Of a stretch of 64,000 bases of DNA, positions 19,521 through 55,133 are shown in pieces. Within the stretch, counting starts at the first letter, position 1; the number at the start of each line of letters is the position of its first letter. The notes beneath the pieces were generated by a model. That model made no database searches. It was not told where the DNA came from and saw only the letters and a program-made list of their open reading frames with translations. This stretch comes from an uncultured Nitrososphaerota archaeon (GTDB lineage: Archaea; Thermoproteota; Nitrososphaeria; Conexivisphaerales; DTJL01), in the NCBI GenBank assembly GCA_963842885.1, contig CAWJIE010000004.1, positions 288,001 to 352,000 on the forward strand. Reading direction: 5' to 3'. The translations under genes and the position numbers were made by a program.

Positions 19521-19526
19521 AGCGAA

Positions 19527-20198: not shown

Positions 20199-20245
20199 AA
20201 AGGAAACACTTAAACATACATCACTTAAGACTCCTAAATGTAGGT

Positions 20246-34942: not shown

Positions 34943-35161
34943 ATGAAGGATCTTTCGCAATTGCCGGCTCACGCCCATTGTAAGACCTGTGGTAAAGTTA
35001 TTCAGCCAGGTAGGAGTTACTGCTCAAGTGAATGTGAAACAATCGGCGTTAAGGAGGAGAGACACAAGAAGAGTGGCGACTTTGTTACACGGTTCGTCTT
35101 GGTGGCAATGTTCGGAATAGCCATTTTGTTTGTCTTTCTCCAGCTACTCTCTAAAGCTTAA
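34943..35161 (+). CDS. DUF2116-like Zn-ribbon membrane protein
   Basis: HAHCKTCGK..YCSSEC followed by a hydrophobic helix. Confidence 0.75.
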   Translation: MKDLSQLPAHAHCKTCGKVIQPGRSYCSSECETIGVKEERHKKSGDFVTRFVLVAMFGIAILFVFLQLLSKA

Positions 35162-35204
35162 TGGAAGCAAACCATAAAATAACCACAAACCCGAGTTGTG
35201 GACT

Positions 35205-35334
35205 GCGGGGGTCCCCGAGCCAGGTCAAAGCTTCCCGAATTAGGTGACTACAGGGGGCAGACGCGAAGCTCGTAAAGCCCAAACTCAAGATCTGCTGGCG
35301 TAGGCCTTCGTGGGTTCGAATCCCACCCCCCGCA
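35205..35334 (+). tRNA. tRNA-Leu(CAA) with two non-canonical introns (35229-35251 in the D-loop; 35261-35282 at 30/31)
   Basis: BHB-like junctions GGTC-AAA/GACT-ACA and GGGC-AGA/GCCC-AAA; spliced arm GCAGA-CT-CAA-GA-TCTGC; long variable arm. Confidence 0.9.
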
Positions 35335-35363
35335 CTACAATTTGGGTGGGAATACTTTTAAGT

Positions 35364-36515
35364 ATGAACCTCGAACTCTCCCGCCGATTGAACGATCAAC
35401 TCAAAGGCCAGTCGATGGTCAACTTCCTGAAAGGCTTCAATAGCGAAGCCACAAAGGACTCCTACTACAAGAAGCTCAGGTACTTCCTCGCTTTCACTCA
35501 TATGGAGCCTGACGAGTTCCTTGAGAAGAGCAGGAACGACTCGAAGTTCGCCGAACACGCAATAATAGACTATGTGGAAGCAAGGAGGAGCCAGGTAAGC
35601 GGTTCAACCATACACCAAGTCAGAGATGCTTTGAAGCATTTCTATGAGATGAATGACCTTGATGACGCGGTAAACTGGGCAAAGATTAGCAAGCTTATGC
35701 CGCACGCTAGGAAGATAGGCAGTGATAGAGCGCCAACCTTGGAAGAAGTCAGAACCATAATCGACAACGCTGATCTGAGAACCAAATGCATCGTTCTGTT
35801 GTGTTGTAGCACTGGGATAAGGCTGGGAGCGATAGCATCCTTGACTTGGAGAGACATCGAACCACTCTTCAAGGACGGAGATCTCGTTGCGGCAAAACTC
35901 ATCGTCTACCGAGAAGATCCAGAAGAGTACTCGACGTTTATGACGCCTGAGTGCTATCATGCGTTAGCGGAATACAGGAAAAGGAGAGAGGCAATCGGTG
36001 AGCTGGTGACACCGACCTCACCTCTCATTAGAGATGTCTGGGATAATAACAAGTATAGAGCTAGCAGGAAACAAGATCCAAAGGTGGCCAAAGCCCTCAG
36101 TGCCAAAGCGATAGGAAATGAGATGGGAGATTTGCTGAGGAAGGTTGGCCTAAGGAAGGCGGGTGATAAGAAACACGAGTTCAAGCAGGTACACGGTTTT
36201 CGTAAATTCTTCAAGACCAACGCTGAAAGAGGCATGAAGACAATCGACGTCGAGAAGTTACTTGGTCATGCGGAGAACTATTACAAGCCCTCCACGCATT
36301 ACCTGCTGGACGAATACGTCAAGGTAGTTCCGCTTCTCACAATCTCAGAGGCAGTTGAATTGAAGAACAAGCTCGAAGAGAAGGTGGTCGTCAGCGACAG
36401 GAAGGTCGGCGCGCTCGAAAGGGAGAACCTTATACTACAAGGCAGACTGGCCAAGATTGAGAAGGATTACGAAGAAGTGAAGGAACTAATCGAGTCTCGG
36501 TTGCTGACACGGTGA
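35364..36515 (+). CDS. Tyrosine recombinase/integrase
   Basis: STGIRLGAI (R), HGFRK (HxxR), LLGH and NYY (Tyr); C-terminal coiled coil. Confidence 0.93.
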   Translation: MNLELSRRLNDQLKGQSMVNFLKGFNSEATKDSYYKKLRYFLAFTHMEPDEFLEKSRNDSKFAEHAIIDYVEARRSQVSGSTIHQVRDALKHFYEMNDLDDAVNWAKISKLMPHARKIGSDRAPTLEEVRTIIDNADLRTKCIVLLCCSTGIRLGAIASLTWRDIEPLFKDGDLVAAKLIVYREDPEEYSTFMTPECYHALAEYRKRREAIGELVTPTSPLIRDVWDNNKYRASRKQDPKVAKALSAKAIGNEMGDLLRKVGLRKAGDKKHEFKQVHGFRKFFKTNAERGMKTIDVEKLLGHAENYYKPSTHYLLDEYVKVVPLLTISEAVELKNKLEEKVVVSDRKVGALERENLILQGRLAKIEKDYEEVKELIESRLLTR

Positions 36516-41127: not shown

Positions 41128-42246
41128 TCAAGAGTCTCTCCCGTTCGATTTCTTGCCTGCATTTTGTATGAGTGTCATCCATTTATTCTCTCCCTCTACG
41201 GTTATCCCCGCAACTTCGGCGGGCGTCTTACCGCCAAATGCCCTGTGTGGTTTCACGTAATTGTGGTGGATAGCATAACCGTTTGCGAAATTCCGCGCTG
41301 ACTCGATAGTGCGAAACGATCCGATTACGTGAAGCCTTTTCTTCATTACTCCGTTGAGCCGCTCCACCCTGTTATTTGTCGCTGGACCGACTAGGCCAGG
41401 ACCCTGAATGTGAATCGCAGGGCGCTTCAAGGTTGATCGTAGGGCTACATCATAGGGGGCTGCTCCGTCGGTCACCACCTCTTCGGGTTCTCCCGCTCGC
41501 CTTATCCCCTCTAGGACTATCTTGGTCGCTTCCACCACGTTCCTTCTCTGACTTACTCGGACGGCTATGAGGAAGCGGGTCTTTTCGTCCAGTAGATTCC
41601 AGAACAGAATGTGCCTTCCTTTGAGGTTCACGTAGGTCTCATCAACATTCCACCTTTCGCTGGAAAGGGAGACCTGACCCTCCAAAGCTGCGCTTGCCAG
41701 CACGACGTACTTGCGAATCCAGTTCATCACGGTGACGTGTGACACCTTTAGGTGCCAGACCGAGAGGAGATGGCCCGACACCTCCCTTAGGCTCAGCCCC
41801 CTAAAGTAGAGATCCAGGGCAGAGGCAACCGCTGAACCCTCTGTCTTGGAGTTTGCGAAGGTAGAATCCACGAACCTTGTGCGACACGATTTGCAGTAGT
41901 ATCTCTGGGTTGCTCCTTTCTTGTTGTGCCTGATCCCCCGACGTACCAGTTCTATTCCACCACACCTCGGACACTTCGGAGTCTCGGTCGTTTGGTTATT
42001 CAGGATGGTCGTTACTTGCTCAGTTGCTCTATGATAGAAGACCGCCGCGATGTGCTTGCACCGCTTATGGCTTTGGCGGTAATCAGGACAGGAGCACGCC
42101 CAGTGAGTGCGCCGCCACGAGACTGTATAGACCTCCGCACACGTCTGGGATTTGACTCTATAGCATGATGAGTCGACTCGATGAACGGACTTGAGCAATG
42201 TTAGCCCTCTGACTTCCCGTCTTCCGAGTGTCGCCATACGAATCAC
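41128..42246 (-). CDS. IS6-like DDE transposase with N-terminal SWIM finger and Zn ribbon
   Basis: CSCPD..CKHI, CPRCG..QRYYCKSC, WNVDETY, VTDG, NNRVERLN and TPAE motifs. Confidence 0.88.
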   Translation of the reverse strand: MIRMATLGRREVRGLTLLKSVHRVDSSCYRVKSQTCAEVYTVSWRRTHWACSCPDYRQSHKRCKHIAAVFYHRATEQVTTILNNQTTETPKCPRCGGIELVRRGIRHNKKGATQRYYCKSCRTRFVDSTFANSKTEGSAVASALDLYFRGLSLREVSGHLLSVWHLKVSHVTVMNWIRKYVVLASAALEGQVSLSSERWNVDETYVNLKGRHILFWNLLDEKTRFLIAVRVSQRRNVVEATKIVLEGIRRAGEPEEVVTDGAAPYDVALRSTLKRPAIHIQGPGLVGPATNNRVERLNGVMKKRLHVIGSFRTIESARNFANGYAIHHNYVKPHRAFGGKTPAEVAGITVEGENKWMTLIQNAGKKSNGRDS

Positions 42247-43127: not shown

Positions 43128-43357
43128 TGAAGCTCATCCTCGCCAAGAAAACGTTCAACCGCAAAGACGTGTTCGCACTTGATGCCTCTTTGCAAGAAAT
43201 CGGGGCACTCGCACCACCATTCACCTTTCTGCATCGAGACAGTGTGCCAAGTCGGTCCGCTCTGCGACTTCACTTTGAAGGACTGCGAACGACCTCGAAT
43301 AACAAATCCGATCTGTCTGCAGCCAGCTACGCGTTTCCCATTTTGTGTGTCCATCAT
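43124..43357 (-). CDS. Stand-alone SWIM zinc finger protein
   Basis: VKSQSG...WWCECPDF...CEHVFAV. Confidence 0.8.
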   Translation of the reverse strand: MMDTQNGKRVAGCRQIGFVIRGRSQSFKVKSQSGPTWHTVSMQKGEWWCECPDFLQRGIKCEHVFAVERFLGEDELQ

Positions 43358-43486
43358 ACCTTATCTACCTAATCGACCCATACGACTGGGCACTTTATAA
43401 AGGTATAGGTAGATGCGACCTAATAGGTATGGCGCTACATATCAGTGCATAAGACCTATAAGCCACACAGATAACATTCTGACGGG

Positions 43487-43657
43487 ATGGGCCAGAAATC
43501 AGCGGTTGCGCGTGCGAGCAACAAGTCTCCTTCGGTGCGAACTACAATCCCCGAGAAGATAGCCCAGGAACTGAAGCTTGACCCTGGGGACATCTTAGAC
43601 TGGGAGGTCGTGCAGGAGAAGGGTAGGCTAGTTGCTAAAGTTAAGAAGCTGGAATAG
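43487..43657 (+). CDS. AbrB/MazE/SpoVT-family DNA-binding protein
   Basis: SVRTTIPEKIAQELKLDPGDILDW; 56 aa, below the ORF-track cutoff. Confidence 0.85.
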   Translation: MGQKSAVARASNKSPSVRTTIPEKIAQELKLDPGDILDWEVVQEKGRLVAKVKKLE

Positions 43658-43672
43658 GCCTGCGACGTAGCC

Positions 43673-44320
43673 ATGGTCACGAGTAGCGCTTCTCACGGAC
43701 GGAAGAGACCATCTCTTAAGGTCAATCCAGAGGATGTGTTGCATTACATCGAACACACGCATCCCAACATACTGTCCGACGAACTGGACCACAAATCGGT
43801 CTCAGAAGCCTATCCTTGGGGCAGCGCTCAGTACAACGAAGCCGCATCCGTATTCCATGCCGCCCAGCGATACCACTTGACACCCGAACAGATGGCAAGA
43901 GTCATGGGTGGAGAGCTGACGGTCAAGCTAAAGCCGAAGAAGGATTGGGATAGGATCTTCTCGCGGTTCATAGCAAAGGACAAGGCAGACTGCGCCAAGG
44001 GTGAGAAGCGATTCTATCAATACCGCCTGAGGCGTGGCGATTGGAAGGCCGTCCCGAAGAACGGAGACGATTTCCTGAAATGGGCAAGAAAGAATGGCTG
44101 GGATCTGTGGACAGCCGTCCCCGAACTGGCCAAGCTGACTATGAGCTATCAAATGAAAGAGATATACAAGCCGATGGGAGGACCTCACTTGCTTCCCACG
44201 GCGATGTCTCCAAATGCAAAAGCGTGGGCTTCGAACTATGGCGTCGGTCTCTTGGCGCACATGATGGTTCACTACGGCATCGTCAAGGACGAGCGTAGCT
44301 TCAAGGACTTCGACACTTAG
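43673..44320 (+). CDS. Hypothetical protein
   Basis: 215-aa ATG ORF directly after the AbrB gene; no recognised motif. Confidence 0.65.
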   Translation: MVTSSASHGRKRPSLKVNPEDVLHYIEHTHPNILSDELDHKSVSEAYPWGSAQYNEAASVFHAAQRYHLTPEQMARVMGGELTVKLKPKKDWDRIFSRFIAKDKADCAKGEKRFYQYRLRRGDWKAVPKNGDDFLKWARKNGWDLWTAVPELAKLTMSYQMKEIYKPMGGPHLLPTAMSPNAKAWASNYGVGLLAHMMVHYGIVKDERSFKDFDT

Positions 44321-44370
44321 GCACTCTAACTCGCCTGAAATGGGGTCCCGCAAGCTAGCTGAGAAGGTTC

Positions 44371-44463
44371 GGTCAGTAGAGGAGATGTTCTATAACGGTT
44401 ACGGACAGAAAAGTCAGCCCTATCGGGCCCGTCGGGAATCGCGTCCACCTAGGTCCTCTAACA
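44371..44463 (+). repeat. Long inverted repeat, left arm (contains repeat A1)
   Basis: Matches the reverse complement of 53832-53915, including ACGGTTACGGACAGAAAAGTC and TCCACCTAGGTCCTCTAACA. Confidence 0.92.
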
Positions 44464-44539
44464 AGTTGCGATCGGAGGGCATACGGAAGATGCCGAGTCC
44501 AGAAAGCAGGGAATATAACGGTCTGGCTCATATCATCGC

Positions 44540-45589
44540 GTGATGGCCCAAGGCAGCCCACCTTCGCATGAGGTGTTACCAGCGGGCGATGGCCGCGTCC
44601 GCAAGTGGCTGGGAATTGCAGGGATCTTCCTCGGCATCGCGTGGGCGGCCAGCGATGTCCTTGCGCCCCTCTCGCTGTACTACGGCTACTTCCAGGGGAG
44701 CCTTGCCAGCTACCAGAACGACCTCCAGCCGTTCCTCAGTTTCAACGCGTGGCGGGTATTGACCGCGCCAGCTTCGGCCATGGTGGCGCTGGTAGGGTAC
44801 AGGGTGGCGAAGGGGCGAAGTCCCTCAAGGCCCGTCATCCTCGCCATAGTCCTGCTCTACGGCGGTGGCTTCAGCGTGCATTCGATCCTCACGGCCCTGA
44901 TGACTCCGTTCTTCCTGGGCCCCAACCTCTACCTCCTCCAGGGCGCGTTTCTGGCCGCATGCGGCGCGCTCTTCGTCCTGTACGGCAGGCGGGGCTTCAA
45001 GCTGGCTGGCTTCCTCCTTGCGGAAATGGGGGTCTTTCTCTTCTACATCGGTGGCCTGACCCTTCCGCCAGGCTTTGCAGACTACGGTTGGATGACCGTG
45101 GTCTCGACAGACTTCGCGAAATTCCACATCATCGAGGACCAGTTTCGCCTGTGGGTCTTCTTCACCCAAGACGTGGCACCTGCGTTCCTGGCAGTGGTCG
45201 GCGTCGCACTCGCAGCGGGAGCGATGAGGGCATATGCGTCCCAGAGGGAAGGAGTTGTGCACAAGATCGGAGACTTCCTTCTCTTTGTGTGCGGGTCAGC
45301 CTTCGGCCTCATTCTCATCATCGTCAGTTGCTTCGGTGGCGCCCTGTTCGGCGCCCTGCTGGTCTACTCCATCAACACTCTTGGACTCGGGGCGGCCTCT
45401 CCCTTCGTCCCGATACTCGCGGCTGGGCCGATCGTTTCCGCTGTCCAGGCTGTGGGTGGGGTCTTCGTGATCTTGGCATCCCTTCCCCGACGAAGTGGAA
45501 CTTCGTGGCGGTGGGGGCCTCCACTCGACTGGGCAGCAGGTTCATACGACGGCCAGAGCGGCACGGATAATAACCCAAGTCGCCTATAG
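44540..45589 (+). CDS. Multi-pass membrane protein (cargo)
   Basis: 349-aa hydrophobic ORF with visibly GC-rich codons. Confidence 0.7.
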   Translation: MMAQGSPPSHEVLPAGDGRVRKWLGIAGIFLGIAWAASDVLAPLSLYYGYFQGSLASYQNDLQPFLSFNAWRVLTAPASAMVALVGYRVAKGRSPSRPVILAIVLLYGGGFSVHSILTALMTPFFLGPNLYLLQGAFLAACGALFVLYGRRGFKLAGFLLAEMGVFLFYIGGLTLPPGFADYGWMTVVSTDFAKFHIIEDQFRLWVFFTQDVAPAFLAVVGVALAAGAMRAYASQREGVVHKIGDFLLFVCGSAFGLILIIVSCFGGALFGALLVYSINTLGLGAASPFVPILAAGPIVSAVQAVGGVFVILASLPRRSGTSWRWGPPLDWAAGSYDGQSGTDNNPSRL

Positions 45590-45599
45590 GAAATCTGCA

Positions 45600-46028
45600 A
45601 TGGCGACTCGAAGGAGGGTGGTGGTTGCGGTTGCTTCGACTCTCGTCGCGGTTGTTGTCGCCGTCGCCGTAGGCTTGTGGCTCTGGCTGGGAGCAGGCGG
45701 AGGCGGCGGGACATTCTCGGTGAGTTACTTGGAGGTGACTTCGCACCCGTCTCTTGGCTACAGCGAGGTGGACTTCACCATCTCCAACAGGAACACCGTT
45801 CCGATGGTCAGCTTGGAGGTCGATGTGAATGGCGAGAGCACGGCCCCCCTCACGATAGGCCCAACCGCCAGTTATCCAATTCCACCTGGGCAGACTGTCA
45901 CAGGTCTAAGCTACTCCCCTATCGTCCGCATCGTGCAGGGCCAGACCTACACTGTCGTTATCACGGCGGGGTTCGGCGACGGAACCAACGCGAGCTTCTC
46001 CTGGACCGTTGTGGCGGGAGGGACCTGA
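45600..46028 (+). CDS. Membrane-anchored surface protein, archaeal pilin/Ig-like
   Basis: MATRRR plus a hydrophobic helix, then FTISN and GQTYTVVITA strand patterns. Confidence 0.6.
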   Translation: MATRRRVVVAVASTLVAVVVAVAVGLWLWLGAGGGGGTFSVSYLEVTSHPSLGYSEVDFTISNRNTVPMVSLEVDVNGESTAPLTIGPTASYPIPPGQTVTGLSYSPIVRIVQGQTYTVVITAGFGDGTNASFSWTVVAGGT

Positions 46029-46070
46029 TGACAGCTCTAGCCTTGAGCAACAGGCTCAAGAGGCAGGGCA

Positions 46071-46103
46071 CGTCGGGAATCGCGTCCACCTAGGTCCTCT
46101 GAC
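46071..46103 (+). repeat. Repeat A2
   Basis: CGTCGGGAATCGCGTCCACCTAGGTCCTCT is identical to 44430-44459. Confidence 0.95.
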
Positions 46104-46152
46104 GGCCACAGAGCGACCACTTAAATCGGACAATCGAGCAAACCATCTCCGA

Positions 46153-47388
46153 ATGTCAGAGGACGTCGCGGCAGGAGAACCATCACAAGCACCCACGCCG
46201 AAAAGAAACTGGGGGGTGTGGGGAGTGTGGTTCGGCGTCGCCCTCTTCTTCTCGGTGGTCATTTTCGCGGAGGGCTACCTGGTCAACCTCATCCTGACCA
46301 CTCCAGGCTCCATGCCCGCTCCAATCCCTTTAGGCTATGCCGTGGCGCTCGGGATATGGGGCATCGTTCTGAATCTGGCGCTGATGCCTTTCGTGGGATA
46401 CTTCGTCCAGCAGAGGGTCAAGCCGTTCGACCCTACGGGGATCTTTGCCATGACCCTAGCTGCTGGGCTGCTGGTCGGGATAGTGCCCACGACAATCGGA
46501 CAGGTCTGCACGACCAATGCATCTACCACATGCAGCTACCAATTCGACGTCGGCACCCTCTGGAGTCAATCGTATTATGTAGTGTCCGCCCTCACAGACG
46601 CTCTCAACGTCTCACTAGTCATGCTGGCAGGGGCGTTCCTTTCGCAGTGGCGCCAGGGTGCGATCACGATGGCCAGCCCCGCCCGAAGTAAGCGCATCCT
46701 CCTCGTAGCTTGGCTGGTCATAGGCTTCGTAGCGGTAGGAGCACAGTCGGTCGCCTACGCTTTCGCCATCATCGGCATCAGCAACCCCTATCTGATCGAT
46801 CTTTCGTCGGGTCTTCCATGGTCGTACGGCAGCTTCGCGAGCCTGCTGGCGGGACCACTCCTCGCCTCCTGCCTCGGTTACTTCCTATACTCTAGGCTTC
46901 GTGAAGTCGGCATGAGGCAGCTGTTTTCGATGGTGGCCCTGGGGGGGATGCTGGCCTTCGTCATCACACAGGCGGCATACGGAATAACACTCGCAAGGGT
47001 GCCATCGGTCGTCTTCGGCACCATCGTCACAGGAATCTTCCCCGCGTGGATCGTCCTAGGCGGCTGCCTTCTCTCCATCCTTGAGAAGGGGCGGACACAT
47101 CCAGGCGTTGACGAGGCTGCTTCGCTCGGCCACCAGGATGCTTCAGGGAGGCTGTCGTACCCGACGCTCGCCGTCGGCTTCGCCGTCACGATTGCATTCT
47201 ACGTCCTTGGCGTATTGAGTCAGACCTCTGTGTTCAATACCTCGTATTCATTTAGGCAGGACGTCGGCGCGAGCGCGTTCTATGGTCTCCTTATCGGGCT
47301 TTTCATTGTTTTTTCTGGGTTTGCGCTGCTTCATTCAGAGCATCAAGCGAAGAAGGCCGTAGTCAGTGATGCCACCGACGTTCCTTGA
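46153..47388 (+). CDS. Multi-pass membrane protein (cargo)
   Basis: About 411-aa ORF with many TM segments; TTAAAT upstream. Confidence 0.7.
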   Translation: MSEDVAAGEPSQAPTPKRNWGVWGVWFGVALFFSVVIFAEGYLVNLILTTPGSMPAPIPLGYAVALGIWGIVLNLALMPFVGYFVQQRVKPFDPTGIFAMTLAAGLLVGIVPTTIGQVCTTNASTTCSYQFDVGTLWSQSYYVVSALTDALNVSLVMLAGAFLSQWRQGAITMASPARSKRILLVAWLVIGFVAVGAQSVAYAFAIIGISNPYLIDLSSGLPWSYGSFASLLAGPLLASCLGYFLYSRLREVGMRQLFSMVALGGMLAFVITQAAYGITLARVPSVVFGTIVTGIFPAWIVLGGCLLSILEKGRTHPGVDEAASLGHQDASGRLSYPTLAVGFAVTIAFYVLGVLSQTSVFNTSYSFRQDVGASAFYGLLIGLFIVFSGFALLHSEHQAKKAVVSDATDVP

Positions 47389-47460
47389 CCTTCTCTTCCA
47401 TGTCGCCTGTATTTGGATTGGATGCATATGCCCCCAGACCCTTTGCATGACGACTCTCCC

Positions 47461-47493
47461 TCGCGGGCTTGGACCTGCGAATGGGCTGGCTCG
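47461..47493 (+). repeat. Repeat B1
   Basis: TCGCGGGCTTGGACCTGCGAATGGGCTGG. Confidence 0.9.
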
Positions 47494-47629
47494 GTTTCAA
47501 GTTTGCCCAACCTGTAGTTTAGGCAAACAAAGGAAGCCCTTTCGTGGGTGGTCTTGAAGTCTGCTCCTTAGGGAAACCAAGTCTTGTTAAAGTTCTGCTG
47601 GAATCGGTTTTAGGCTGTGGTTTTCCTAG

Positions 47630-47715
47630 GTGGGCATGGACCTGCGAATGGGCTGCTCGTTCGTCTTTGTGTTATTGAAAACAATAGGTTAATTGAACAA
47701 GGGCGAGGCACCTTA
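47630..47715 (+). repeat. Repeat B2, extended ~85-bp direct repeat shared with 48206-48294
   Basis: GGGCATGGACCTGCGAATGGGCTG...TCTTTGTG.TATTGAAA...TAGGTTAATTGAAC. Confidence 0.9.
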
Positions 47716-48243
47716 CGGCCAGACTGCCTGACAAAGGTAACTGTTCCCAGCTGCTGTTATTACTGCGATGTCATAGCTCTGTCCCGAACTGACGTTCAGG
47801 GTCGACCTCCCAATCAATAGCTCTCCTTCGGTCCCAGATGCCAGCATGAAAGCGCCCGCTGAGGTCTTATTGAAACTCCCTTCAGGGGTTATGCTGCTCA
47901 GCGGGACCGACGCGTTGTTAAACAAGACCTGGGTAACGGTCGCTGAATAAGGACAATTGTTGAAAGTGGTGATGATGAGGGTGCTGTTCGAAGCGTCCGT
48001 CGATGTGGCGAGAACGAGTTTTTCCGTGTGTTCAGGGGGTATGTAGAGACCAGACCCAAAAGACGCTATAAGTCCGAAGAAGGCCACGAACCCCACCAAG
48101 AAGATGGCTATGACAATGTACCCCTTTTTGCCTGAACTATTTTGGGCCGTACAGGAGACTGAGGTATTGCGAAGATATGAATGCTGTGGCACAGGCGCTG
48201 AGAACGTGGGCTCGGACCTGCGAAATGGGCTGATCTCGTTCAT
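47713..48243 (-). CDS. Archaeal pilin-like surface protein (true start probably downstream of 48243)
   Basis: KKG|YIVIAIF class III-like signal, hydrophobic helix, GQSYDIAVITAAGN. Confidence 0.55.
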   Translation of the reverse strand: MNEISPFRRSEPTFSAPVPQHSYLRNTSVSCTAQNSSGKKGYIVIAIFLVGFVAFFGLIASFGSGLYIPPEHTEKLVLATSTDASNSTLIITTFNNCPYSATVTQVLFNNASVPLSSITPEGSFNKTSAGAFMLASGTEGELLIGRSTLNVSSGQSYDIAVITAAGNSYLCQAVWP

Positions 48244-48305
48244 CTTTGTGCTATTGAAATCAGTAGGTTAATTGAACGATAGGGGAGGCAACTTAGGTCC
48301 CCGAC
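48206..48305 (+). repeat. Repeat B3 with extension, ending in a degenerate A-like half site
   Basis: GTGGGCTCGGACCTGCGAAATGGGCTG...ACTTAGGTCCCCGAC. Confidence 0.85.
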
Positions 48306-48368
48306 ATTTGGCAGGCCAGAGTTCAACGTAGATGATTCAATCTGCTGGACGCTGCCAGTTGCAGGAGA

Positions 48369-49151
48369 CTAGCCTGATTGCCTCGGCAAGAGAACACGAA
48401 TCAAGTTCATGACGGCAAAGACGACCGCCGCCCAGAATGCAATATCTACCGACAGTCCTAACACGTCAATGGAAAACCACGGCTGAGACTGGAGAGGTCC
48501 AAAGGAGTAGAACTGATGGGCCCAAGCAAATGGCCACCCGACATCCATGTGGGAGAAGGTCCAGCTCCCAATTGCTGAAATGAATGTGAGAGCAAAACCA
48601 GCCGAAATGCTGGAAATGACCGAGGCGCCCCTTTCCGATGCGAAAGCCATCGTGATTGAGGCCAGCCCGACCACGACTCCGATGATGGCGAGGATGGGAA
48701 GACTGTAAGGAAACAGAGGACAGAATGCTGCACCACTTGAGCCGCAGTACGTCGTGCCTACGGTTGCAGGTGGCAACGTGGCTACATCGGCTACGATGCA
48801 AAGGATTCCGACGGCAATGCAGGTGTTCCTCAGCGTCTTGTGGACCTTGGTGTCAGTGGTATCCTTCGTCGCCGCCACCTTCACCATCTTCACGAAGGCC
48901 AGAGCCTCCTTCCCGTCGTCCGTCAGGAAATAGGCCCCGTCCGAACCGCTCCTGACCAAGCCGCCCAGCTTGCTCAAGTGGAATTGAAGGTGCCCACTAC
49001 TCTCAAGCCCTACCCTTCGCCTCAGTTCCGAGAAGCCAAGCGGGCCGTCTTCGAGAACGTGAAGTATCCTGATCCTGATTGGGTGGCCAAGGGCATCAAA
49101 GAGTTCCGCCTTTGACTTGTCGAAGTCAGTGTTGTCAGGCTCGTCAGGCAT
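48369..49151 (-). CDS. ArsR-type wHTH regulator fused to a membrane domain
   Basis: LFDALGHPIRIRIL, FSELRR, LQFHLSKL and YFLTDDG, then about four TM helices. Confidence 0.85.
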   Translation of the reverse strand: MPDEPDNTDFDKSKAELFDALGHPIRIRILHVLEDGPLGFSELRRRVGLESSGHLQFHLSKLGGLVRSGSDGAYFLTDDGKEALAFVKMVKVAATKDTTDTKVHKTLRNTCIAVGILCIVADVATLPPATVGTTYCGSSGAAFCPLFPYSLPILAIIGVVVGLASITMAFASERGASVISSISAGFALTFISAIGSWTFSHMDVGWPFAWAHQFYSFGPLQSQPWFSIDVLGLSVDIAFWAAVVFAVMNLIRVLLPRQSG

Positions 49152-49254
49152 AGCTTACGGTAAGTTGACTCGGAGATATAATGCCACGTTTATGGACAGG
49201 GAGGCGGTCATTCCCTCCCAGTCGGTCTACGAAACTGGCATGGCTACTCTAGGT

Positions 49255-49275
49255 CGTGGGCTTGGACCTGCGAGG
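49255..49275 (+). repeat. Repeat B4
   Basis: CGTGGGCTTGGACCTGCGAGG. Confidence 0.88.
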
Positions 49276-49742
49276 ACTCTATATAGAGCGCGTCTGCCCA
49301 TGCCTCCTATTGAAGTTCAGAGAAGGCAGCTTAATATCGGCCGCGCTCCCTTCGAGCATCAGTCTCGTCCTTGTGGGCGTCACTGACCGCAGCGAACTAT
49401 TTCCCCGAGATCGTCTCATTTCTAGTCCTGTTCACGATGGCGCTGTACTACGTCTACAGGACGGCGATACTCACCGCACTCGGAGACCGCCGCCCCTCCA
49501 GCACGACGGTGCTGCTTCTCGGGGGGCGCCCGATACGCCTGGCGGCGCTCGTCGAGCCTGTTCTAGTCGTGGCTGGAAGCCTCTTGGTGTCTTACCTTGT
49601 GATATATCTCATCACCGCAGGCTTCTTTCTGGGATACCAACTCATCATTGCGGGCTTGGGGACGATGGCCCTGGGGCTCGTCCTAGTTGCCATTACCAAG
49701 CTGCGAAGGCACGCTTGGCTTGAAAGCGATCGACGAACATAG
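49276..49742 (+). pseudogene. Membrane protein fragment, apparently 5'-truncated and frameshifted
   Basis: Hydrophobic coding sequence switches frame near 49385; bounded by B4 and A3. Confidence 0.5.
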
Positions 49743-49743
49743 G

Positions 49744-49781
49744 GGGAACCACGTCCACCTAGGCCCTCCGATGAGTTGCGA
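49744..49781 (+). repeat. Repeat A3
   Basis: GGGAACCACGTCCACCTAGGCCCTCCGATGAGTTGCGA; shares the AGTTGCGA tail with A1. Confidence 0.9.
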
Positions 49782-49888
49782 GTATAGAATGTTGTATACG
49801 GCCTTGGGCACATTCTGTGAAGGTTACGTACAAAGGAGCCAAGCTTGGTTGTCGGCTTCGGACACGAGGAGTTATTTCGCAGCTCGGG

Positions 49889-50584
49889 TCAGGACTTCCT
49901 TAGCCAGATTTCACGTCCGATGCCTTCGTCTACAGTTTCACATGTTCTGAAGTTGGACTTGGCGACAATGTCACAAATCTGGTCCTTCGTATAAGACGAT
50001 TTCAACAGACCCCTGAAAGTGAACCTCGTGACGAACGAGTTGACCAAGCCTAGCCGCATGTTGTTGACATATTCGTCAAGCTCAGCCTTGGTGGCTTCCT
50101 TCCGCATGTCTATGATTACCGCCTTTCCTCTGGGCCCGAGTACCCTGAAGACCTCGTCGAGTACTCTGGTGGGATCAGGGAAGTTCTTGAAAGCCGAAGT
50201 GCAGATGGCGAAGTCGAAAGTGCCATCTGAGAAGGGCATGTGCGCCGCGTCGCCTTGGTGGAACTCGACCTTTACGTTCGCCTCCCTAGCATTCTTCGAT
50301 GCGATGTCCACAAAGGTCTTGCTTATGTCGAGCCCCACGACCCTGTAAGCGCCAAGCCGAGCCAACTCGATGGACAGGTAGCCTGGGCCTGGGGCGACCT
50401 CTAGCACATTACTGCCTTCGGAAAGCTGGCCGCTCGCCAACTTGGCCCACGACGTGTACTGCTGCATGTCATTCCGCTGGGTCCTCGCATACCATTTGGC
50501 GATTAGGCCCTCCATAGCCACGCCCTTGTACGCTTTCCGTTTCTCCGAGGGTGAAGGTGGATTTGGCGTCTCGGCGCTGTCCAT
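49889..50584 (-). CDS. Class I SAM-dependent methyltransferase (UbiE-like)
   Basis: VLEVAPGPG, GLDIS and GDAAHMPFSDGTFD motifs. Confidence 0.9.
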   Translation of the reverse strand: MDSAETPNPPSPSEKRKAYKGVAMEGLIAKWYARTQRNDMQQYTSWAKLASGQLSEGSNVLEVAPGPGYLSIELARLGAYRVVGLDISKTFVDIASKNAREANVKVEFHQGDAAHMPFSDGTFDFAICTSAFKNFPDPTRVLDEVFRVLGPRGKAVIIDMRKEATKAELDEYVNNMRLGLVNSFVTRFTFRGLLKSSYTKDQICDIVAKSNFRTCETVDEGIGREIWLRKS

Positions 50585-50710
50585 ACTCCCTTCCGAAGTC
50601 GGACAAGGTTAGCGGTTATATAGAGACTTTGGCCTCGGCAGTCGCCTCGTTCAAGAACCACACTTGAGACTGCCGCCCGTCTCGTAGTGCAACTGCGTTG
50701 CGAGCCTAGA

Positions 50711-50741
50711 GGGAAGCGCGTCCACCTAGGTCCTTGACGGC
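50711..50741 (+). repeat. Repeat A4
   Basis: GGGAAGCGCGTCCACCTAGGTCCTTGACGGC. Confidence 0.9.
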
Positions 50742-50854
50742 ACTCAACGATAGACGTAGCCGATCCGCCTGTCTGTCATCAGTTCTCTTTCGATTTCCCA
50801 GTGTCCTCGCCTTTGCCCACGCTTGCTCCATCGACGACCCACCCACCGCCTCGA

Positions 50855-52141
50855 CTAAACCATTCTTATGTTCGGAATGGCCCTCTCGAACTGCTTCAAG
50901 GTCATTAAGAAGGGCAATCCAGTGGCGTCACCGCCATGTTCCAGTTCGTATTCGTAGATGCTCTTAATGTAGCTTGGCAGCCTCAACCAACCCGCCCCAT
51001 CGGTAATGTAGATGAGCCTGAGGTTACGCTTGTCACAATCGTCGTAAAGCTCCTTGAAGTGAATTACTACTTCCTTTATCTTCGACATCGACGTCGTGAA
51101 ATAGTTCGTCTCCACGGCGTAGACTACCTTGCTGCCCTTGGCAAGTAGGAAGTCGAACTTCTTGTCGCCACCTCTCCAGCGTTTCTGTTCTACGAACGAC
51201 CATCTCGAAGGGTCGGCTGGTATCAATCCAGAACCGAGGCGCTCTTCTACTTCTTCAAGATCTCGGGCGCCATTCATCGACTCGTGGACGAATCCTGAGG
51301 CGAGGAGTATCTGGCGTACCCGTGTTTCCCCATAGCTCCCTCTTTCTGCCTTCACTGACTCGACGTTGGTTGTGCGCATACTCCGCTTTAGGGCGCTAAG
51401 TATGACGCTTTCCTTGATGAGCAAGAGCAAGTCTTCTTCGAACAAAAGAAATTCTGCTATCCTCTTGGCTGAAGCTGGATCTGTGGTTATCCTAGATTTC
51501 CACAATTCCCAGCACGAGGCCTCATCGTCCAAATAGGAATCGATGGTACGTTTCATGCATGCCAGCTTCTGAATCTCGTCAAGAGGCTTGATTTCAGGCT
51601 GGATTCCCGTGTAGCTCGTCCACGCCTTCGATCTGATTGCGGAACGGTACTGGTCACCGAAACGGGGATCCTCACTCATCAGTTTGTCATAGTAGGCGAG
51701 GCTATCCAACTGATCAGGGTCGAAGAGGAGTTTTATGAGTTCCGAACTTGTAAACCTTAGCTGTCTGTGCAGATGCATGAATACTAAGAAGTAGCGGGGA
51801 TCTTCCCTTATGAGGTCGGCAACCCTAGCAACGAGTTCATCAGCCTTTGCAGAGACGGCGGCCAAATCCTGAACCCGCCGAGCAAGTGCCCAGAACTTGT
51901 CTTCCCCGCCGAACACGTCAAGCAAGAATCTGTTCAACACAGGCTTGTTGGGCTCAGTAGTCTGAGGACCAGCTTTGGGGAGAAGACGCCCTCGTTCGCC
52001 GATATCGAGAGTGGCGTAGAACTCAGTAACTCGCCTATCTGTCTCCGAACTCAACCCTACTGAAAGACTTCTCGTACCCAATGCTATATAAGTTGGCAGC
52101 CTTGGAGTTCGGCGTAGCATGGCGCCGAAGGCTGCGACCAC
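50855..52141 (-). CDS. DpnII-like type II restriction endonuclease (true start probably near 52054)
   Basis: KKFDFLL...YAVETNYF...SK..E and YITDGAGW motifs; divergent from a DNA methyltransferase. Confidence 0.75.
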   Translation of the reverse strand: MVAAFGAMLRRTPRLPTYIALGTRSLSVGLSSETDRRVTEFYATLDIGERGRLLPKAGPQTTEPNKPVLNRFLLDVFGGEDKFWALARRVQDLAAVSAKADELVARVADLIREDPRYFLVFMHLHRQLRFTSSELIKLLFDPDQLDSLAYYDKLMSEDPRFGDQYRSAIRSKAWTSYTGIQPEIKPLDEIQKLACMKRTIDSYLDDEASCWELWKSRITTDPASAKRIAEFLLFEEDLLLLIKESVILSALKRSMRTTNVESVKAERGSYGETRVRQILLASGFVHESMNGARDLEEVEERLGSGLIPADPSRWSFVEQKRWRGGDKKFDFLLAKGSKVVYAVETNYFTTSMSKIKEVVIHFKELYDDCDKRNLRLIYITDGAGWLRLPSYIKSIYEYELEHGGDATGLPFLMTLKQFERAIPNIRMV

Positions 52142-53129
52142 AAATAGGGCACTAAATCGGCCCAGATCTTACAAGAGCATGGAGCTTGTTACAGAGAAGG
52201 ACTACCTGCGCTTTGTTGGTCAGCATAGATCTGTCATGATTGGCGACGTCGAGATTGCGATAGGCCAACCATGGAACATCGGTAGCTATGCTCCGCCAGC
52301 CAGCTATGTTCCAGAAAGCTTCACAGTGTGGAGTTTCCCCGATAGAGGAGACTGGGCAACACACACGGGCAAGTATCGAGGTAATTGGAGTCCTTACATC
52401 CCGAGGAATCTGATTCTCAAGTACACGCAGGCTGGAGATACCGTACTCGATCAGATGGCGGGCTCAGGGACAACTCTGGTGGAGTGCAAGCTGCTTCAGC
52501 GCAACGGAATCGGAGTTGACATCAACCCAGACGCAGTCATGCTTGTCCAAGATCGGCTCAACTTCGCATACAATCCGTTGTTAACAGGAAGTGAACCATA
52601 TGTGGCGCCCAAGATCGAGACATATGTGGGAGATGCCCGCAACCTAGACAAGATACCTTCGGATAGCATCGACCTGATAGCAACTCATCCTCCATATGCT
52701 TTCATAATCAAGTACACAAAACAGAAGGTCGAGGGTGACCTCTCAAGCACGAGGCTTGATGAATACATCAACTCTATGAAGAGAGTTGCGAGCGAAAGTT
52801 TCAGGGTCCTCAAGCCAGGAAAGAATTGCGGAGTGCTGATAGGCGATTCCCGTGCTCACCAGCACTACATCCCGATTTCAATCGGCGTGCTAGAGGCCTT
52901 TAGAGATGCAGGCTTTATCTTGAGGGAAGACATCATAAAGCTCCAGCATCATACAAAAACGACCAGAGACAAATGGAAAGGGAGATATGACTTCTACAAG
53001 ATTGCCCACGAGCATCTGTTTGTCTTCAGGAAGCCCCTCTCCGATGAGAAGGTCGCGATGTTTCGTGATTCAGTTCGGTGGCCCAATGAAGGGTTTCTTG
53101 ATCAACTCGTGATCCCAGAAGGAGATTAG
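52119..53129 (+). CDS. N4/N6 DNA methyltransferase (true start probably 52179)
   Basis: YRGNWSPYIPRN, DQMAGSGTT, THPPY and RVLKPG motifs. Confidence 0.88.
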   Translation: MAPKAATTNRALNRPRSYKSMELVTEKDYLRFVGQHRSVMIGDVEIAIGQPWNIGSYAPPASYVPESFTVWSFPDRGDWATHTGKYRGNWSPYIPRNLILKYTQAGDTVLDQMAGSGTTLVECKLLQRNGIGVDINPDAVMLVQDRLNFAYNPLLTGSEPYVAPKIETYVGDARNLDKIPSDSIDLIATHPPYAFIIKYTKQKVEGDLSSTRLDEYINSMKRVASESFRVLKPGKNCGVLIGDSRAHQHYIPISIGVLEAFRDAGFILREDIIKLQHHTKTTRDKWKGRYDFYKIAHEHLFVFRKPLSDEKVAMFRDSVRWPNEGFLDQLVIPEGD

Positions 53130-53180
53130 GTAGATCTTCCACCTCATACTCATGCATGGTCAGCTTCTGATACCGTGACT

Positions 53181-53206
53181 GCCAGCCCATTCTTCGCAGG
53201 TCCAAG
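53181..53206 (-). repeat. Repeat B5 (inverted orientation)
   Basis: Reverse complement CTTGGACCTGCGAAGAATGGGCTGGC. Confidence 0.85.
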
Positions 53207-53412
53207 TGTCGTTATATCCTTCCTCCCTCATTCATGGCGTGAAGCCCCCTAATTACAAGGAGCAGCCAGCCCGCCACGGCCCCATGTGCCGAGACTGTGA
53301 AGCCTATGAGCCTGTCGACAGCACCTGCAAGAGATATTCCGCATCGGTCGATCCCAATTACGAATGTGATAGTTGGAAGAGAAACCCCAACCTTCCGATA
53401 AAGGCGGTCTAG
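53206..53412 (+). CDS. Small four-Cys protein with HiPIP-like spacing
   Basis: NYKEQP..CRDCEAY...CKRY...VDPNYECDSW. Confidence 0.5.
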   Translation: MSLYPSSLIHGVKPPNYKEQPARHGPMCRDCEAYEPVDSTCKRYSASVDPNYECDSWKRNPNLPIKAV

Positions 53413-53433
53413 CCTCGCAAGTCCAAGCCCGCG
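53413..53433 (-). repeat. Repeat B6 (inverted orientation)
   Basis: Reverse complement CGCGGGCTTGGACTTGCGAGG. Confidence 0.85.
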
Positions 53434-53464
53434 CCCTAATGTGTCTATCAACTATCTCGGGATG

Positions 53465-53698
53465 TTATTCGCCATCCGATGCCCGTCGAGGGAGCCGAAG
53501 CCTGTACTTGGGTGAGAGCATTTCCGCTATCGTGCCAATCAGGTAGCCCACGAACGCGCCTCCGATTATTCCAATCGGATAGGCGAAGTACAACAACACC
53601 GAGGCAGCAGGGCTTCTGTAGTTCTCGACGTAGATGACGGCCCAGCCTACTCCAACCAATATGCCCAGCAGCTCAAGAGCTGTGCGCGTCCTCATCAA
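53465..53698 (-). CDS. Small two-helix membrane protein
   Basis: 77-aa ORF with two hydrophobic segments. Confidence 0.6.
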   Translation of the reverse strand: MMRTRTALELLGILVGVGWAVIYVENYRSPAASVLLYFAYPIGIIGGAFVGYLIGTIAEMLSPKYRLRLPRRASDGE

Positions 53699-53831
53699 TT
53701 GTGAAGTACCCTGTCAGAGTAATTAACCTTAGTCTGTGCTACATCTTTGTTCGCAGCTTCAACTACAGGGTCAGCTTCAATTTGATTTCAACATGTTAGA
53801 GATAATCAATGAATTGAGAGACTTGTTTGCC

Positions 53832-53915
53832 TGTTAGAGGACCTAGGTGGATGTGGTTCCCGACGGATCCGACTTTTCTGTCCGTAACCGTCATAGAATA
53901 TCTCCTTTGCTGGCC
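53832..53915 (-). repeat. Long inverted repeat, right arm (contains repeat A5)
   Basis: Reverse complement matches 44371-44463 apart from a 9-bp gap and scattered transitions. Confidence 0.92.
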
Positions 53916-54488
53916 AAGTTCTATTTCAGAGCTAAGGGTCTTAGCAACTGATGATGTCTGATGCGACGCGAAGCGAGAAAGGTGAAATTGAACCCAACAT
54001 GATTGGTCATAGTCCCACCCCCCGCACATATTGTAGAATTGAGTAGCATGCGTCCTGCCCAGACAGTTTACCGCGTCCGCCCGCTGCAGTTCTTTTGCTG
54101 AGAGATAGTGTAGAACGTAACTCTAGTCAAAGATGGCTGATCATGCCGTTTAGTAGTCATATGGCGACCTGGGGAGTGATGCGACCAAGGAAGCAAAGCA
54201 CAGGAATGTTTAATGCTGTCAGAGTGTCCTTTGGCGCGTTAGACGCCAAGCCGGTCAAAATCGGTAGGTCGATTGTCAATGGTTTGTAGTCTAGGCATCG
54301 GGCCTCGGCTTTGGGATTTCTCAAGAGAGTTCTATTAGGACCGTTTTCGTAAATGGTTACACCGTCGGATACTTGAATTTTGATGACATCTATCTGGCGA
54401 AGGAAGACAAAATCATCAGGCCGAAAGCGGAATATGTTAGGTTGAGAAACCGGGAATGTTTATTTTTGAGTGGGCGACAAAGTCTGAC

Positions 54489-55133
54489 CTAGGTTCGCTT
54501 ATGGTTGAGTTTGGACGCTTTAAGTGCTTCGAATTCCTCTGGAGTATCAACATCGAGCAAGGAAAGGAGAGAAAAATCAAATTCGGCAAGGTTTTCGGTG
54601 GATATGAACAAGGTTTTCTTGCATTTTTTAGCGATTTGCCAGAGCTCCAACGTCTTGCTTTTCCAAAGATCCTCGAGCACTGGCAAAATAGTCTTTCTAT
54701 TGTAGACGGCGTGTATTGCTTCGAGCTTGCCATCTGGCCATAAAGGTATCACTGAATCGAACTCCTTAGACTTGGAAATCATTTCTATCATCACGTTCGG
54801 GTTCATGAAAGGTGAATCGACTGGGAATACGGCTACGTGTTCTTCAGGAATTTGCCGGAAGGAAGACAAGAGGGCCAAAAGGACCGAGCGAGGACTATCG
54901 TATGAATCTGTCAAATAAGTTGTTCCGGGTGGAAGCATAGGCCTTAGACGGCTAGTTCCTCTACTGTCATGAGTTGATACATAGATGTGGTCGGCGAATC
55001 CGTTAGCTGCGTCGTAGGCCCAGGTGATAAGAGGTTTAGATTCTATTATTAGAGTGGCCTTTTCTTTGCCCATGCGTGAGGAAAGGCCTCCTGCTAGTAT
55101 CAAGGCGGCAGAAGCTCCATGTTCCGATTGCAA
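54489..55133 (-). CDS. mobA: Molybdenum cofactor guanylyltransferase MobA
   Basis: ILAGGLSSRMGKEKA, PVDSPF, LEAIHAVY and DVDTPEE motifs. Confidence 0.88.
   Translation of the reverse strand: MQSEHGASAALILAGGLSSRMGKEKATLIIESKPLITWAYDAANGFADHIYVSTHDSRGTSRLRPMLPPGTTYLTDSYDSPRSVLLALLSSFRQIPEEHVAVFPVDSPFMNPNVMIEMISKSKEFDSVIPLWPDGKLEAIHAVYNRKTILPVLEDLWKSKTLELWQIAKKCKKTLFISTENLAEFDFSLLSLLDVDTPEEFEALKASKLNHKRT

Follow-up and report, generated by a model that had tools for sequence, protein, structure and literature searches.

Gene modules bounded by two short repeat families appear to be reassorted among species of a Conexivisphaerales genus

In a 64,000-nucleotide stretch of DNA from an uncultured Nitrososphaerota archaeon of the order Conexivisphaerales (the window; GenBank GCA_963842885.1, contig CAWJIE010000004.1, here G000:C4:288001-352000), positions 44371-53915 hold an array of ten small modules, each with one or two genes in either orientation, separated by copies of two short repeats, A and B. 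Comparison with related genomes strongly suggests that genes have been reassorted at the A and B sites, and the evidence for this is purely comparative. B appears to be the junction site of a genus-wide module-exchange system that is present on the chromosome and on integrative elements. The explanation that we lean towards is that the exchange of modules takes place through site-specific recombination of the conservative kind at A and B, with a logic like that of integrons in a system that is not itself an integron. The original prediction for this locus, an integron-analogous system that captures or shuffles genes, stands as far as reassortment at the sites is concerned, but no integron platform (intI, attI, Pc) was found and the integrase of the locus is not tied to A or B.

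The window belongs to a metagenome-assembled genome (G000) of 2.03 Mb in 11 contigs (up to 576 kb) with about 58% G+C; contig coordinates without a genome label are those of G000. We compared it with three sister species (G001-G003), a fourth species of the same genus (G004) and 26 genomes of the same family and order but of other genera. All of these genomes are metagenome-assembled, and genes were called with a crude in-house caller. The flanks of 180 B sites, taken from G000 and from retrieved loci of G001-G003 with 2500 nt on either side, were compared all against all. The results showed that 23 long homologies reach B and that all of them stop there: 8 are shared upstream only, 15 downstream only and none on both sides. 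Their end points fall between -15 and +26 from the first T of the B core, within the conserved block. At site 810 of G002:C69, for example, the left flank is common to G000:C8:4834 and the right flank to G001:C13. Whole B-to-B units also recur in other species at 77–94% identity beside unrelated neighbours (Table 1), whereas syntenic core DNA around the window is just 68–76% identical between the same genomes. Because module identity exceeds that of the core, the modules either moved after the species diverged or are unusually constrained. Two outcomes that had been named in advance as contrary to the original prediction, an invariant cassette content and breakpoints away from the repeats, were both absent from this cross-species comparison.

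The gene for a 411-aa membrane protein between A2 and B1 (46153-47388) brings the two repeats together. It is 86.5% identical to G001:C14:10295-11576 and 74% identical to G002:C96, and in the three genomes the conserved part starts at a TATA-like box, CACTTAAATC, about 25 nt past the junction site. The junction upstream of the gene is A2 in the window and B in both G001 and G002; downstream, the homology ends inside B1. A paralogue of this gene at C2:29317-30672 is flanked by B as well, and paralogues of the 260-aa helix-turn-helix (HTH) protein of the array are preceded either by B (C2:18072) or, in the G003 loci, by A-like sites. From these alignments it appears that A and B can be interchanged upstream of the same gene, and that A may be regarded as a rarer second junction site, able to stand where B stands.

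Public reads gave a further view of the junctions. Only three peat metagenome runs were found to cover any of the stretch, about 6% of it, in short contigs that come from relatives and mark where similarity ends rather than excision or strain-level variation; uncovered parts and short-sided joints were excluded as evidence. Contig pieces from these runs break off at A sites (44424, 46094/46075 and 49744). Peat contigs cover 44424-46094 with divergence at both of its A sites, and one contig matches rightwards from 49744 while its left 689 nt are unlike the window. Loose contig ends pile up at 47465-6, 47664, 47697 and 48279, which are the ends of B and of its adjacent repeat families.

B has an invariant core, TTCGCAGGTCCAAGCC, followed by (C/T)ACG; the conserved block around the core, (C)AGCCCATT(T)CGCAGGTCCAAGCC(C/T)ACG(T/C)C, measures about 30 nt and contains the direct repeat AGCCCA-N12-14-AGCCCA. 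The 16-nt core is nearly invariant over about 200 copies in four species, the core genes of which are about 30% diverged. No terminal inverted repeats were seen in the position table, and folding of the segment from -50 to +30 at 63 sites gave a mean z of -0.03 against shuffles, equal to flanking controls; this absence of excess folding agrees with the earlier judgement that the sites are not attC-like. Five copies with up to three mismatches are present in the window (B1 to B4, and B6 on the opposite strand; Table 1) against a chance expectation of 0.06, and a sixth, B5, was recovered by inverted-repeat pairing and nhmmer. All six had been listed in the original prediction, one of them at 53181 instead of 53186-53206. 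In the whole genome, 65 copies were found at up to two mismatches against 0 for the control, and 64 by a profile at E<=0.05. The original prediction had placed neither repeat outside this region; this holds for both within the window and for the A core genome-wide, but not for B.

The B sites of G000 are clustered, oriented and spaced at the scale of genes. Neighbouring sites at most 12 kb apart form 45 pairs, where 1000 random placements gave 19.4 on average and never more than 29, and 42 of the 45 are co-oriented (3 opposed) whatever the orientation of the genes. Spacing has a median of 1327 nt and a range of 165-11155 nt, and such irregular, gene-sized intervals differ from those of clustered regularly interspaced short palindromic repeats (CRISPR), as had been predicted. 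Units as short as 165-670 nt are common. The intervals contain no gene in 5, one gene in 19 and two genes in 10 of the 45 cases. Nearly all sites (61/64) are intergenic by the in-house calls, with flanking genes in any orientation, and B often lies between convergent genes, as B1 and B2 do. There are roughly ten clusters per genome, so that the window holds one small array among many. In a crude hydropathy scan, 38 of 70 module genes were predicted to have a membrane segment, compared with 593 of 2092 genes elsewhere (Fisher p about 1e-5).

The distribution of B is that of a genus-specific sequence. With up to one mismatch on a 15-mer, G001 has 24 copies, G002 61, G003 49 and G004 1, and the same 15-mer occurs 0–1 times in each of the 26 genomes of other genera, which is the control level. 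In G004 a variant core, TCGCAGCCCCAAGCC, is found 7 times (0 in the control), at the loci given in Table 1; the variant core is also seen sporadically in G000-G003. In an exact scan of one genome per species, B was multi-copy only in Conexivisphaerales or Nitrososphaerota archaeon metagenome-assembled genomes, and the remaining matches were single copies in unrelated bacteria.

Several simpler identities for B were considered and rejected. It is not coding sequence, since the reading frame through B varies among copies and the sites are overwhelmingly intergenic. A promoter for the co-directional gene is not favoured by a hand tally, in which the downstream gene is co-directional at 7 of 13 B sites preceded by the family fam1. 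B is not the end of a longer miniature inverted-repeat transposable element (MITE) or insertion sequence (IS), since downstream flanks are nearly all unique and upstream flanks are unique in about half of the cases. Nor does it lie in tRNA genes: a T-loop expression matched 3 of 63 flanks, none of them tRNA-like. A separate observation concerns tRNA-Asp(GUC) at C4:183690-183787, the intron or variable region of which contains GGTCCAAGACCACG, a match to 13 of 14 nt of the B core; the distance from this gene to the A-like tRNA-Lys is 1.1 kb. With E 0.04 among 31 tRNAs, this match could be due to chance or could hint at the origin of B.

Repeat A, of about 40 nt, is much more local. The pattern GGGAAnnnnnTCCACCTAGGnCCT has five exact copies in the window, at 44434, 46075, 49744 and 50711 on the forward strand and at 53838-53861 on the reverse strand, where 0.07 are expected by chance; five copies were reached in 0 of 100 shuffles. 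These are the copies of the original prediction, the coordinates of which were 0–6 nt off. Its partial copy near 48290 is just a 9-mer with one mismatch that the A profile misses at E<=1. In the whole genome the exact 14-nt A core occurs only as the five copies of the locus, and with one mismatch there are 6 matches against 4 for the reversed control. A profile search added one A-like site, at C3:382450. The genome-wide search for both motifs thus leaves A, with its five exact cores, confined to the locus, and B spread through the genome, with about 65 copies in roughly ten clusters, and through the genus. In G003, three co-oriented A-like sites flank DUF7347-type genes in one 5.4 kb contig. 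A scan of metagenomes with the strict A pattern gave no match, and a loose 15-base pattern was discarded after its 119 stretches proved to contain no real A or B site.

The sequence of A points to its origin. The reverse complement of A1 is identical over 18 of 18 nt to the end of the tRNA at C4:182468-182565 (T-loop, T-stem and acceptor), and a gapped alignment of about 50 nt reaches the region of the anticodon stem and intron. ARAGORN labels this tRNA ambiguously as Lys|Stop; judging from its loop, CTTTTAT, we infer an intron-bearing tRNA-Lys(UUU). A is therefore best described as an apparent degenerate copy of the 3' half of a tRNA-Lys gene. Integrase attachment (att) sites usually take the form of such a tRNA 3'-half copy, and A is att-like in this respect. 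No integrase was found by Pfam among the window proteins between or beside the A copies, and the tRNA-Lys locus has no second A copy. Each outer A copy is part of a longer inverted repeat, some 95 nt in length (44371-44463 and 53828-53915; 82–88% complementary), in which A adjoins a 37-nt C element, AAGGAGATrTTCTATrACGGTTACGGACAGAAAAGTC (44381-44417 and 53879-53915). The C element is also found at C9:23-89, C5:17152-17190 and C3:382513-382545, alone or in reverse order, and its reading frame is not conserved.

In the array, A1 to A4 and B1 to B4 point in one direction, and B5, B6 and A5 in the other. The picture of two arrays that converge, with a long A site at the head of each, is accurate for this layout; as a functional claim it is at most putative. 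Three open reading frames (ORFs) end at 49742, 53412 and 47713, with stop codons that abut the repeats, as had been noted. Pfam supports the ArsR-like HTH protein, the methyltransferase and the restriction-modification pair that had been read from the sequence; the proteins that had been called pilin-like and the other membrane proteins have no Pfam match. Rfam gave just one sub-threshold snoRNA match (24.9 bits against 70) for window positions 43000-55000.

Table 1. Positions of the repeats, modules and associated features. Positions without a contig are those of the window.
Feature	Position	Strand	Description
tRNA-like gene	35205..35334	+	Perfect 7-bp acceptor stem, T-arm, long internal insert; 3' end is attL
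attL	35321..35335	+	15-nt direct repeat TCCCACCCCCCGCAC
Tyrosine integrase	35364..36515	+	Directly after tRNA-like gene; Pfam Phage_integrase 31.4 bits, cut-off 27.1
DDE transposase	41128..42246	-	IS240/IS6-like, N-terminal SWIM zinc finger; Pfam DDE_Tnp_IS240 E 1.1e-22
Left long site	44371..44463	+	C element (about 44381-44417), then A1 (44425-44462)
Module A1-A2	44540..46028	+	349-aa multi-pass membrane protein 44540-45589; 142-aa protein 45600-46028; no Pfam match
A2	46066..46103	+	Pattern match; B at the same position in G001 and G002
Module A2-B1	46153..47388	+	411-aa membrane protein, own TATA-like box
B1	47462..47480	+	Followed by gene-less unit with fam2 hairpin (about 47481-47530)
B2 and fam1	47629..47698	+	B2 47629-47647; fam1 47656-47698
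Module B2-B3	47713..48243	-	176-aa protein, hydrophobic N-terminal segment; no Pfam match
B3 and fam1	48205..48277	+	B3 48205-48223; fam1 48235-48277
Module B3-B4	48369..49151	-	260-aa membrane-anchored HTH protein; Pfam DUF7347/ArsR-like E 6e-14
B4	49255..49273	+	Mismatch search
Module B4-A3	49371..49742	+	123-aa membrane protein; no Pfam match
A3	49735..49772	+	Pattern match
Module A3-A4	49889..50584	-	S-adenosylmethionine-dependent methyltransferase; Pfam Methyltransf_11 E 1.3e-24
A4	50702..50739	+	Pattern match
Module A4-B5, endonuclease	50855-52141	-	DpnII-like; Pfam DpnII E 1.7e-15; predicted restriction-modification pair (50855..53129) with the next
Module A4-B5, methylase	52119-53129	+	N6/N4 DNA methylase; Pfam N6_N4_Mtase E 8.7e-24
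B5	53186..53206	-	Inverted relative to B1-B4; C4:341186-341206, nhmmer E 0.011
Module B5-B6	53206..53412	+	68-aa Cys-containing ORF; no Pfam match; missed by crude gene caller
B6	53415..53433	-	Inverted; mismatch search
Module B6-A5	53465..53698	-	77-aa membrane protein
Right long site	53828..53915	-	A5 (53832-53872) and C element; inverted partner of 44371-44463
attR	54013..54027	+	Second copy of TCCCACCCCCCGCAC, right end of island
Shared unit	C2:26699-28844		ABC-transporter pair; with G002:C112, 2176 nt, 87.6%
Shared unit	C8:5515-6090		With G002:C93, 90%
Shared unit	C8:4314-4834		With G002:C69, 88%
Shared unit	47647-48223		176-aa protein; with C2:98998-99590, 76.8%
Shared unit	47647-48223		With G002:C51, about 80% (77-82% by alignment)
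IS110-family copies	C3:1352-2725 (broken gene); C3:189171-190540; C7:about 19000-20300		92.8-94.7% identical
Variant-B loci of G004	C95:3956-5094; C11:359; C93:5842; C116:7994; C51:2645		C95: three co-oriented within 1.1 kb

The array is carried by an 18.7 kb element integrated at the 3' end of a tRNA other than the tRNA-Lys that is similar to A. From the pyrH-tRNA side to the MobA-PolD-Cdc6 side, G000 has 19 kb where G001, G002 and G004 have 1.5–4 kb. The tRNA-like gene at the left end, which is probably intron-bearing, has homologues that adjoin pyrH in G001, G002 and G004; it was called neither by ARAGORN, with or without the intron option, nor by Rfam (window 35000-35500). The repeat TCCCACCCCCCGCAC occurs exactly twice in the window, at the two ends of the island, and as a single copy in the relatives. 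The A/B array occupies the integrase-distal 9.5 kb of the 18.7 kb, with the integrase 8 kb away. A second case of the same layout is found in G003:C59 (L149+L150), where 16 co-oriented B sites are followed by a 12 kb integrase-bearing element with its integrase at the left end and three further B modules at the right, integrase-distal end. This element is bounded by a 27-nt repeat of the family fam4, and its integrase is 23% identical to that of the window. The surroundings are archaeal by Pfam, with the PolD small subunit at 55209-56639 and Cdc6/Orc1 at 56642-57868. Two side observations concern this part of the window. The island encodes a 56-aa MazE/AbrB-like antitoxin-type protein at 43487-43657 with no obvious toxin partner called. 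G+C content is 44–56% in most of the window, against 57–60% in the contigs overall, being about 46–49% in the conserved PolD/Cdc6 origin-side genes and 59–60% in the modules at 44–47 kb.

Four short families accompany B. Upstream of B, in the TCGCAGG orientation, fam1 is found at 17 sites, fam2, a hairpin with a 7-bp stem, at 9, and fam3 or fam4 at some further sites; fam1 and fam4 hold TATA-like boxes. Three B sites of G000 are immediately preceded by fam4 (CATTTAAC...GAAACCCyACGCGTAACT). In G003:C59 it is the direct repeat (13072-13120 and 25306-25355) that bounds the 12 kb element, which indicates that fam4 is the att site of that integrase family. The three copies of an IS110-family element (Pfam DEDD_Tnp_IS110 and Transposase_20; Table 1) are all inserted at the same point of fam3, beside B: GGATATCTGT / CGCTGCTGG / AAAAGAAATC, 15-40 nt from a B site, with TGCTG-like letters at both junctions of the element. 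This shared insertion point marks the element as a parasite with a specific site in array-associated sequence. At the edges of the large B array on C2 we also noted two near-identical ORFs for 91-aa zinc-ribbon-like proteins (VRVRGEKA.DGNF.VVRTYC.DCGKLLDEERLL...), at C2:34284-34559 and C2:50908-51183, each downstream of fam1-like sequence.

How modules might be moved can be set out as follows. A module would exist, at least transiently, as a circle with one site, and a site-specific recombinase encoded in trans, most likely a tyrosine integrase, would join the site of the circle to a resident copy. The product would be site-module-site. Repeated rounds would build co-oriented arrays, and the reverse reaction would delete modules. 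Conservative insertion and deletion are favoured because of the site-module-site arrangement, the co-orientation, the one-sided homologies, the interchange of A and B, the likeness of A to an att site and the location of arrays on integrative elements. We infer from this pattern the circular intermediates, the conservative character of the recombination and the class of the enzyme.

A candidate enzyme was sought in the genomes. Tyrosine recombinases are present in G000-G003 and undetected in G004, a distribution that is not decisive because G004 has variant B sites. The integrases examined score 64.8–74.4 bits against the XerA cut-off of 220. The integrase of the window reaches 64.8 for NCBIfam XerA and at best 19.4 against 265 for integron integrase, so that it is a member of neither family; the earlier remark that it does not resemble IntI was correct. 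Several other candidates were set aside. TnpB is found in all five genomes, not near arrays, and a serine recombinase in G000 alone. The single Y1 transposase gene (C5:213342, beside TnpB) belongs to an ordinary IS200/IS605 unit far from the arrays, and IS110-family genes co-occur with B in G000 and G002 only. Clustering of 842 ORFs near B yielded no shared recombinase-like family except the IS110-family transposase, in G000 only, and no recombinase other than the IS110-family elements was found in or beside the arrays.

A number of observations weigh against site-specific exchange as we propose it. No recombinase could be linked to A or B. The integrase of the window has its own tRNA att site and nothing ties it to either repeat, and the other three tyrosine recombinases of the genome are far from B arrays. 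In G004 (90% complete, 190 contigs) no tyrosine recombinase was detected despite the variant B sites. Dyad symmetry is a feature of classical tyrosine-recombinase core sites, and the B consensus has none, its sole palindrome being GGTCC/GGACC. The sequence upstream of B is unique at about half of the sites, and the remaining sites follow one of the four short families. The peat runs contained no excised circle, empty site or within-population variant in the portion of the stretch that they hold, and their joints are short-sided and may come from repeats. Inside G000 there are no near-identical module duplicates other than the IS110-family element, so that recent activity is unsupported.

It is possible, and we propose it only tentatively, that B is the core of a previously undescribed archaeal exchange system with a recombinase outside the IntI and Xer families. 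The enzyme might then be a divergent integrase, an RNA-guided IS110-type enzyme or a protein of no known family.

The main rival to site-specific recombination is portable homology, which we consider rather unlikely. Here B, and perhaps A, would have another role, for instance as a small-RNA or leader segment or as a protein-binding site, and modules would be swapped, once DNA has been taken up, by ordinary homologous recombination at the 30-nt repeats and with no dedicated recombinase. The lack of a recombinase associated with the sites and of dyad symmetry in B speaks for such an explanation, and the TATA-like boxes of fam1 and fam4 could drive transcription through B. Comparable repeat arrays in Neisseria have been proposed to promote recombination with acquired DNA, according to passages of PMC3898611. 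However, 30 nt is short for efficient homologous exchange, and co-orientation irrespective of the genes is a better fit to site-specific insertion than to a role linked to transcription. The frequent position of B between convergent genes and the near-invariance of its core across species as diverged as these also count against this explanation.

Less probable still is that the arrays are decayed tandem integrative elements and that A and B are their left-over att sites, so that single modules are immobile today. The likeness of A to a tRNA 3' half, the classic att of archaeal integrative elements, speaks for such a history, as does the position of the window array and of the three modules of the G003:C59 element inside integrase-bearing elements with their own att repeats. 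Random decay, however, would not repeat a unit, and the same B-bounded single-gene modules are found in different species beside different neighbours. Units of only a few hundred nucleotides are common, and some 65 sites in roughly ten loci would call for very many independent tandem integrations.

We give little credence to a selfish dispersed repeat, of the repetitive extragenic palindromic (REP), MITE or Neisseria intergenic mosaic element (NIME) type, that copies itself into already variable intergenic DNA and coincides with breakpoints only in appearance. An inserted repeat should leave some pairs of loci syntenic on both sides, and 0 of 23 long homologies pass B. The repeat is indeed short, intergenic, multi-copy and genus-specific and is associated with the short RS-like families fam1-4, and the targeting of fam3 by the IS110-family element is much like the targeting of dRS3 in the excerpted Neisseria account (PMC3898611). 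Yet B lacks terminal inverted repeats and does not fold, and the sole Y1 transposase sits in its ordinary unit at a distance from the arrays. An assembly artefact, in which unrelated fragments were fused at a shared repeat, is very improbable: many B sites of G002 and G003 do lie within about 400 nt of contig ends, so that the repeat does disturb assembly, but the arrays of G000 are deep inside its contigs, the same B-to-B modules occur in independent assemblies of different species, and a 30-nt repeat is at or below usual k-mer sizes.

In logic, these arrays are closest to integron cassette arrays and to dif/pdif module islands; in texture, they are closest to dRS3/RS arrays. As in integrons, mostly single-gene units are set off by recombination-type sites that share an orientation, a given unit can turn up in more than one array and species, and many of the genes are of unknown function or code for membrane proteins. 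The specialisation of the IS110-family element on array-associated sequence is a further likeness, which has its parallel in IS1111 elements and attC. In contrast to integrons, where attC is a hairpin defined by structure, B is a linear, non-palindromic motif; neither IntI nor an attI/Pc platform is present, array genes occupy both strands and bring promoter-like boxes of their own, the conserved box of the 411-aa gene being a likely example, and there are about ten arrays per genome here instead of one. Integrons have been described in archaea, with canonical attC sites in the excerpted text of PMC9668308.

The dif/pdif modules of Acinetobacter, as presented in parts of PMC12907356, are likewise small modules with a short site of about 28–30 nt, arranged in islands on chromosomes and mobile elements. 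They comprise single genes, toxin-antitoxin pairs and IS elements, identical modules occur in different contexts, and the recombinase, XerC/XerD, is encoded elsewhere and acts in trans (same parts of PMC12907356). That account gives pdif two inverted 11-bp arms around a 6-bp spacer, in alternating C/D and D/C order (PMC12907356), whereas B has a direct repeat in place of a dyad and its neighbours are overwhelmingly co-oriented. For the dRS3 and RS repeats of Neisseria, passages of PMC3898611 describe a 20–30 nt repeat with families of 30–160 nt in intergenic arrays, associated with surface or membrane protein genes, and propose that dRS3 mediates gene insertion, deletion and exchange. Set against those passages (PMC3898611), dRS3 differs in having 6-bp terminal inverted repeats and about 700 copies, which contrasts with about 65 copies of B; whole genes lie between B repeats, beyond short RS pieces; and the IS110-family element enters fam3 beside B rather than the repeat itself.

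With archaeal integrative elements that target tRNA genes, the locus shares the likeness of A to tRNA-Lys and the sequence of tRNA 3' end, integrase and 15-nt repeat in the island. In elements of the SSV/pNOB8 type, the att site is the 3' part of a tRNA gene. Here, in contrast, five copies of A lie inside another element, far from the tRNA-Lys at C4:182468-182565, and the A-bounded units of 1–3.7 kb carry no integrase. Nor do the arrays resemble REP sequences or bacterial interspersed mosaic elements with their REP-associated tyrosine transposases (REP/BIME with RAYT), given the lack of a fold in B and the ordinary IS200/IS605 setting of Y1_Tnp. In the literature that was searched we found no description of a module system in archaea other than the canonical attC integron, and none of repeat-bounded arrays in Conexivisphaerales or Nitrososphaeria.

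One of the main ways in which bacteria adapt rapidly is through modules bounded by specific sites, integron cassettes and pdif modules among them. In the archaea studied here, junction sites, modules and reassortment between species are directly visible in the genomes, which makes the hunt for the enzyme a concrete one and allows a concrete test of the exchange of surface and defence genes in uncultured soil archaea. For genome engineering, too, a 30-nt site that is not palindromic and whose recombinase acts in trans would be an interesting tool. If the system does lie outside the IntI and Xer families, it would be the means by which membrane-protein, transporter, restriction-modification and toxin-antitoxin modules spread among the species of this Conexivisphaerales genus.

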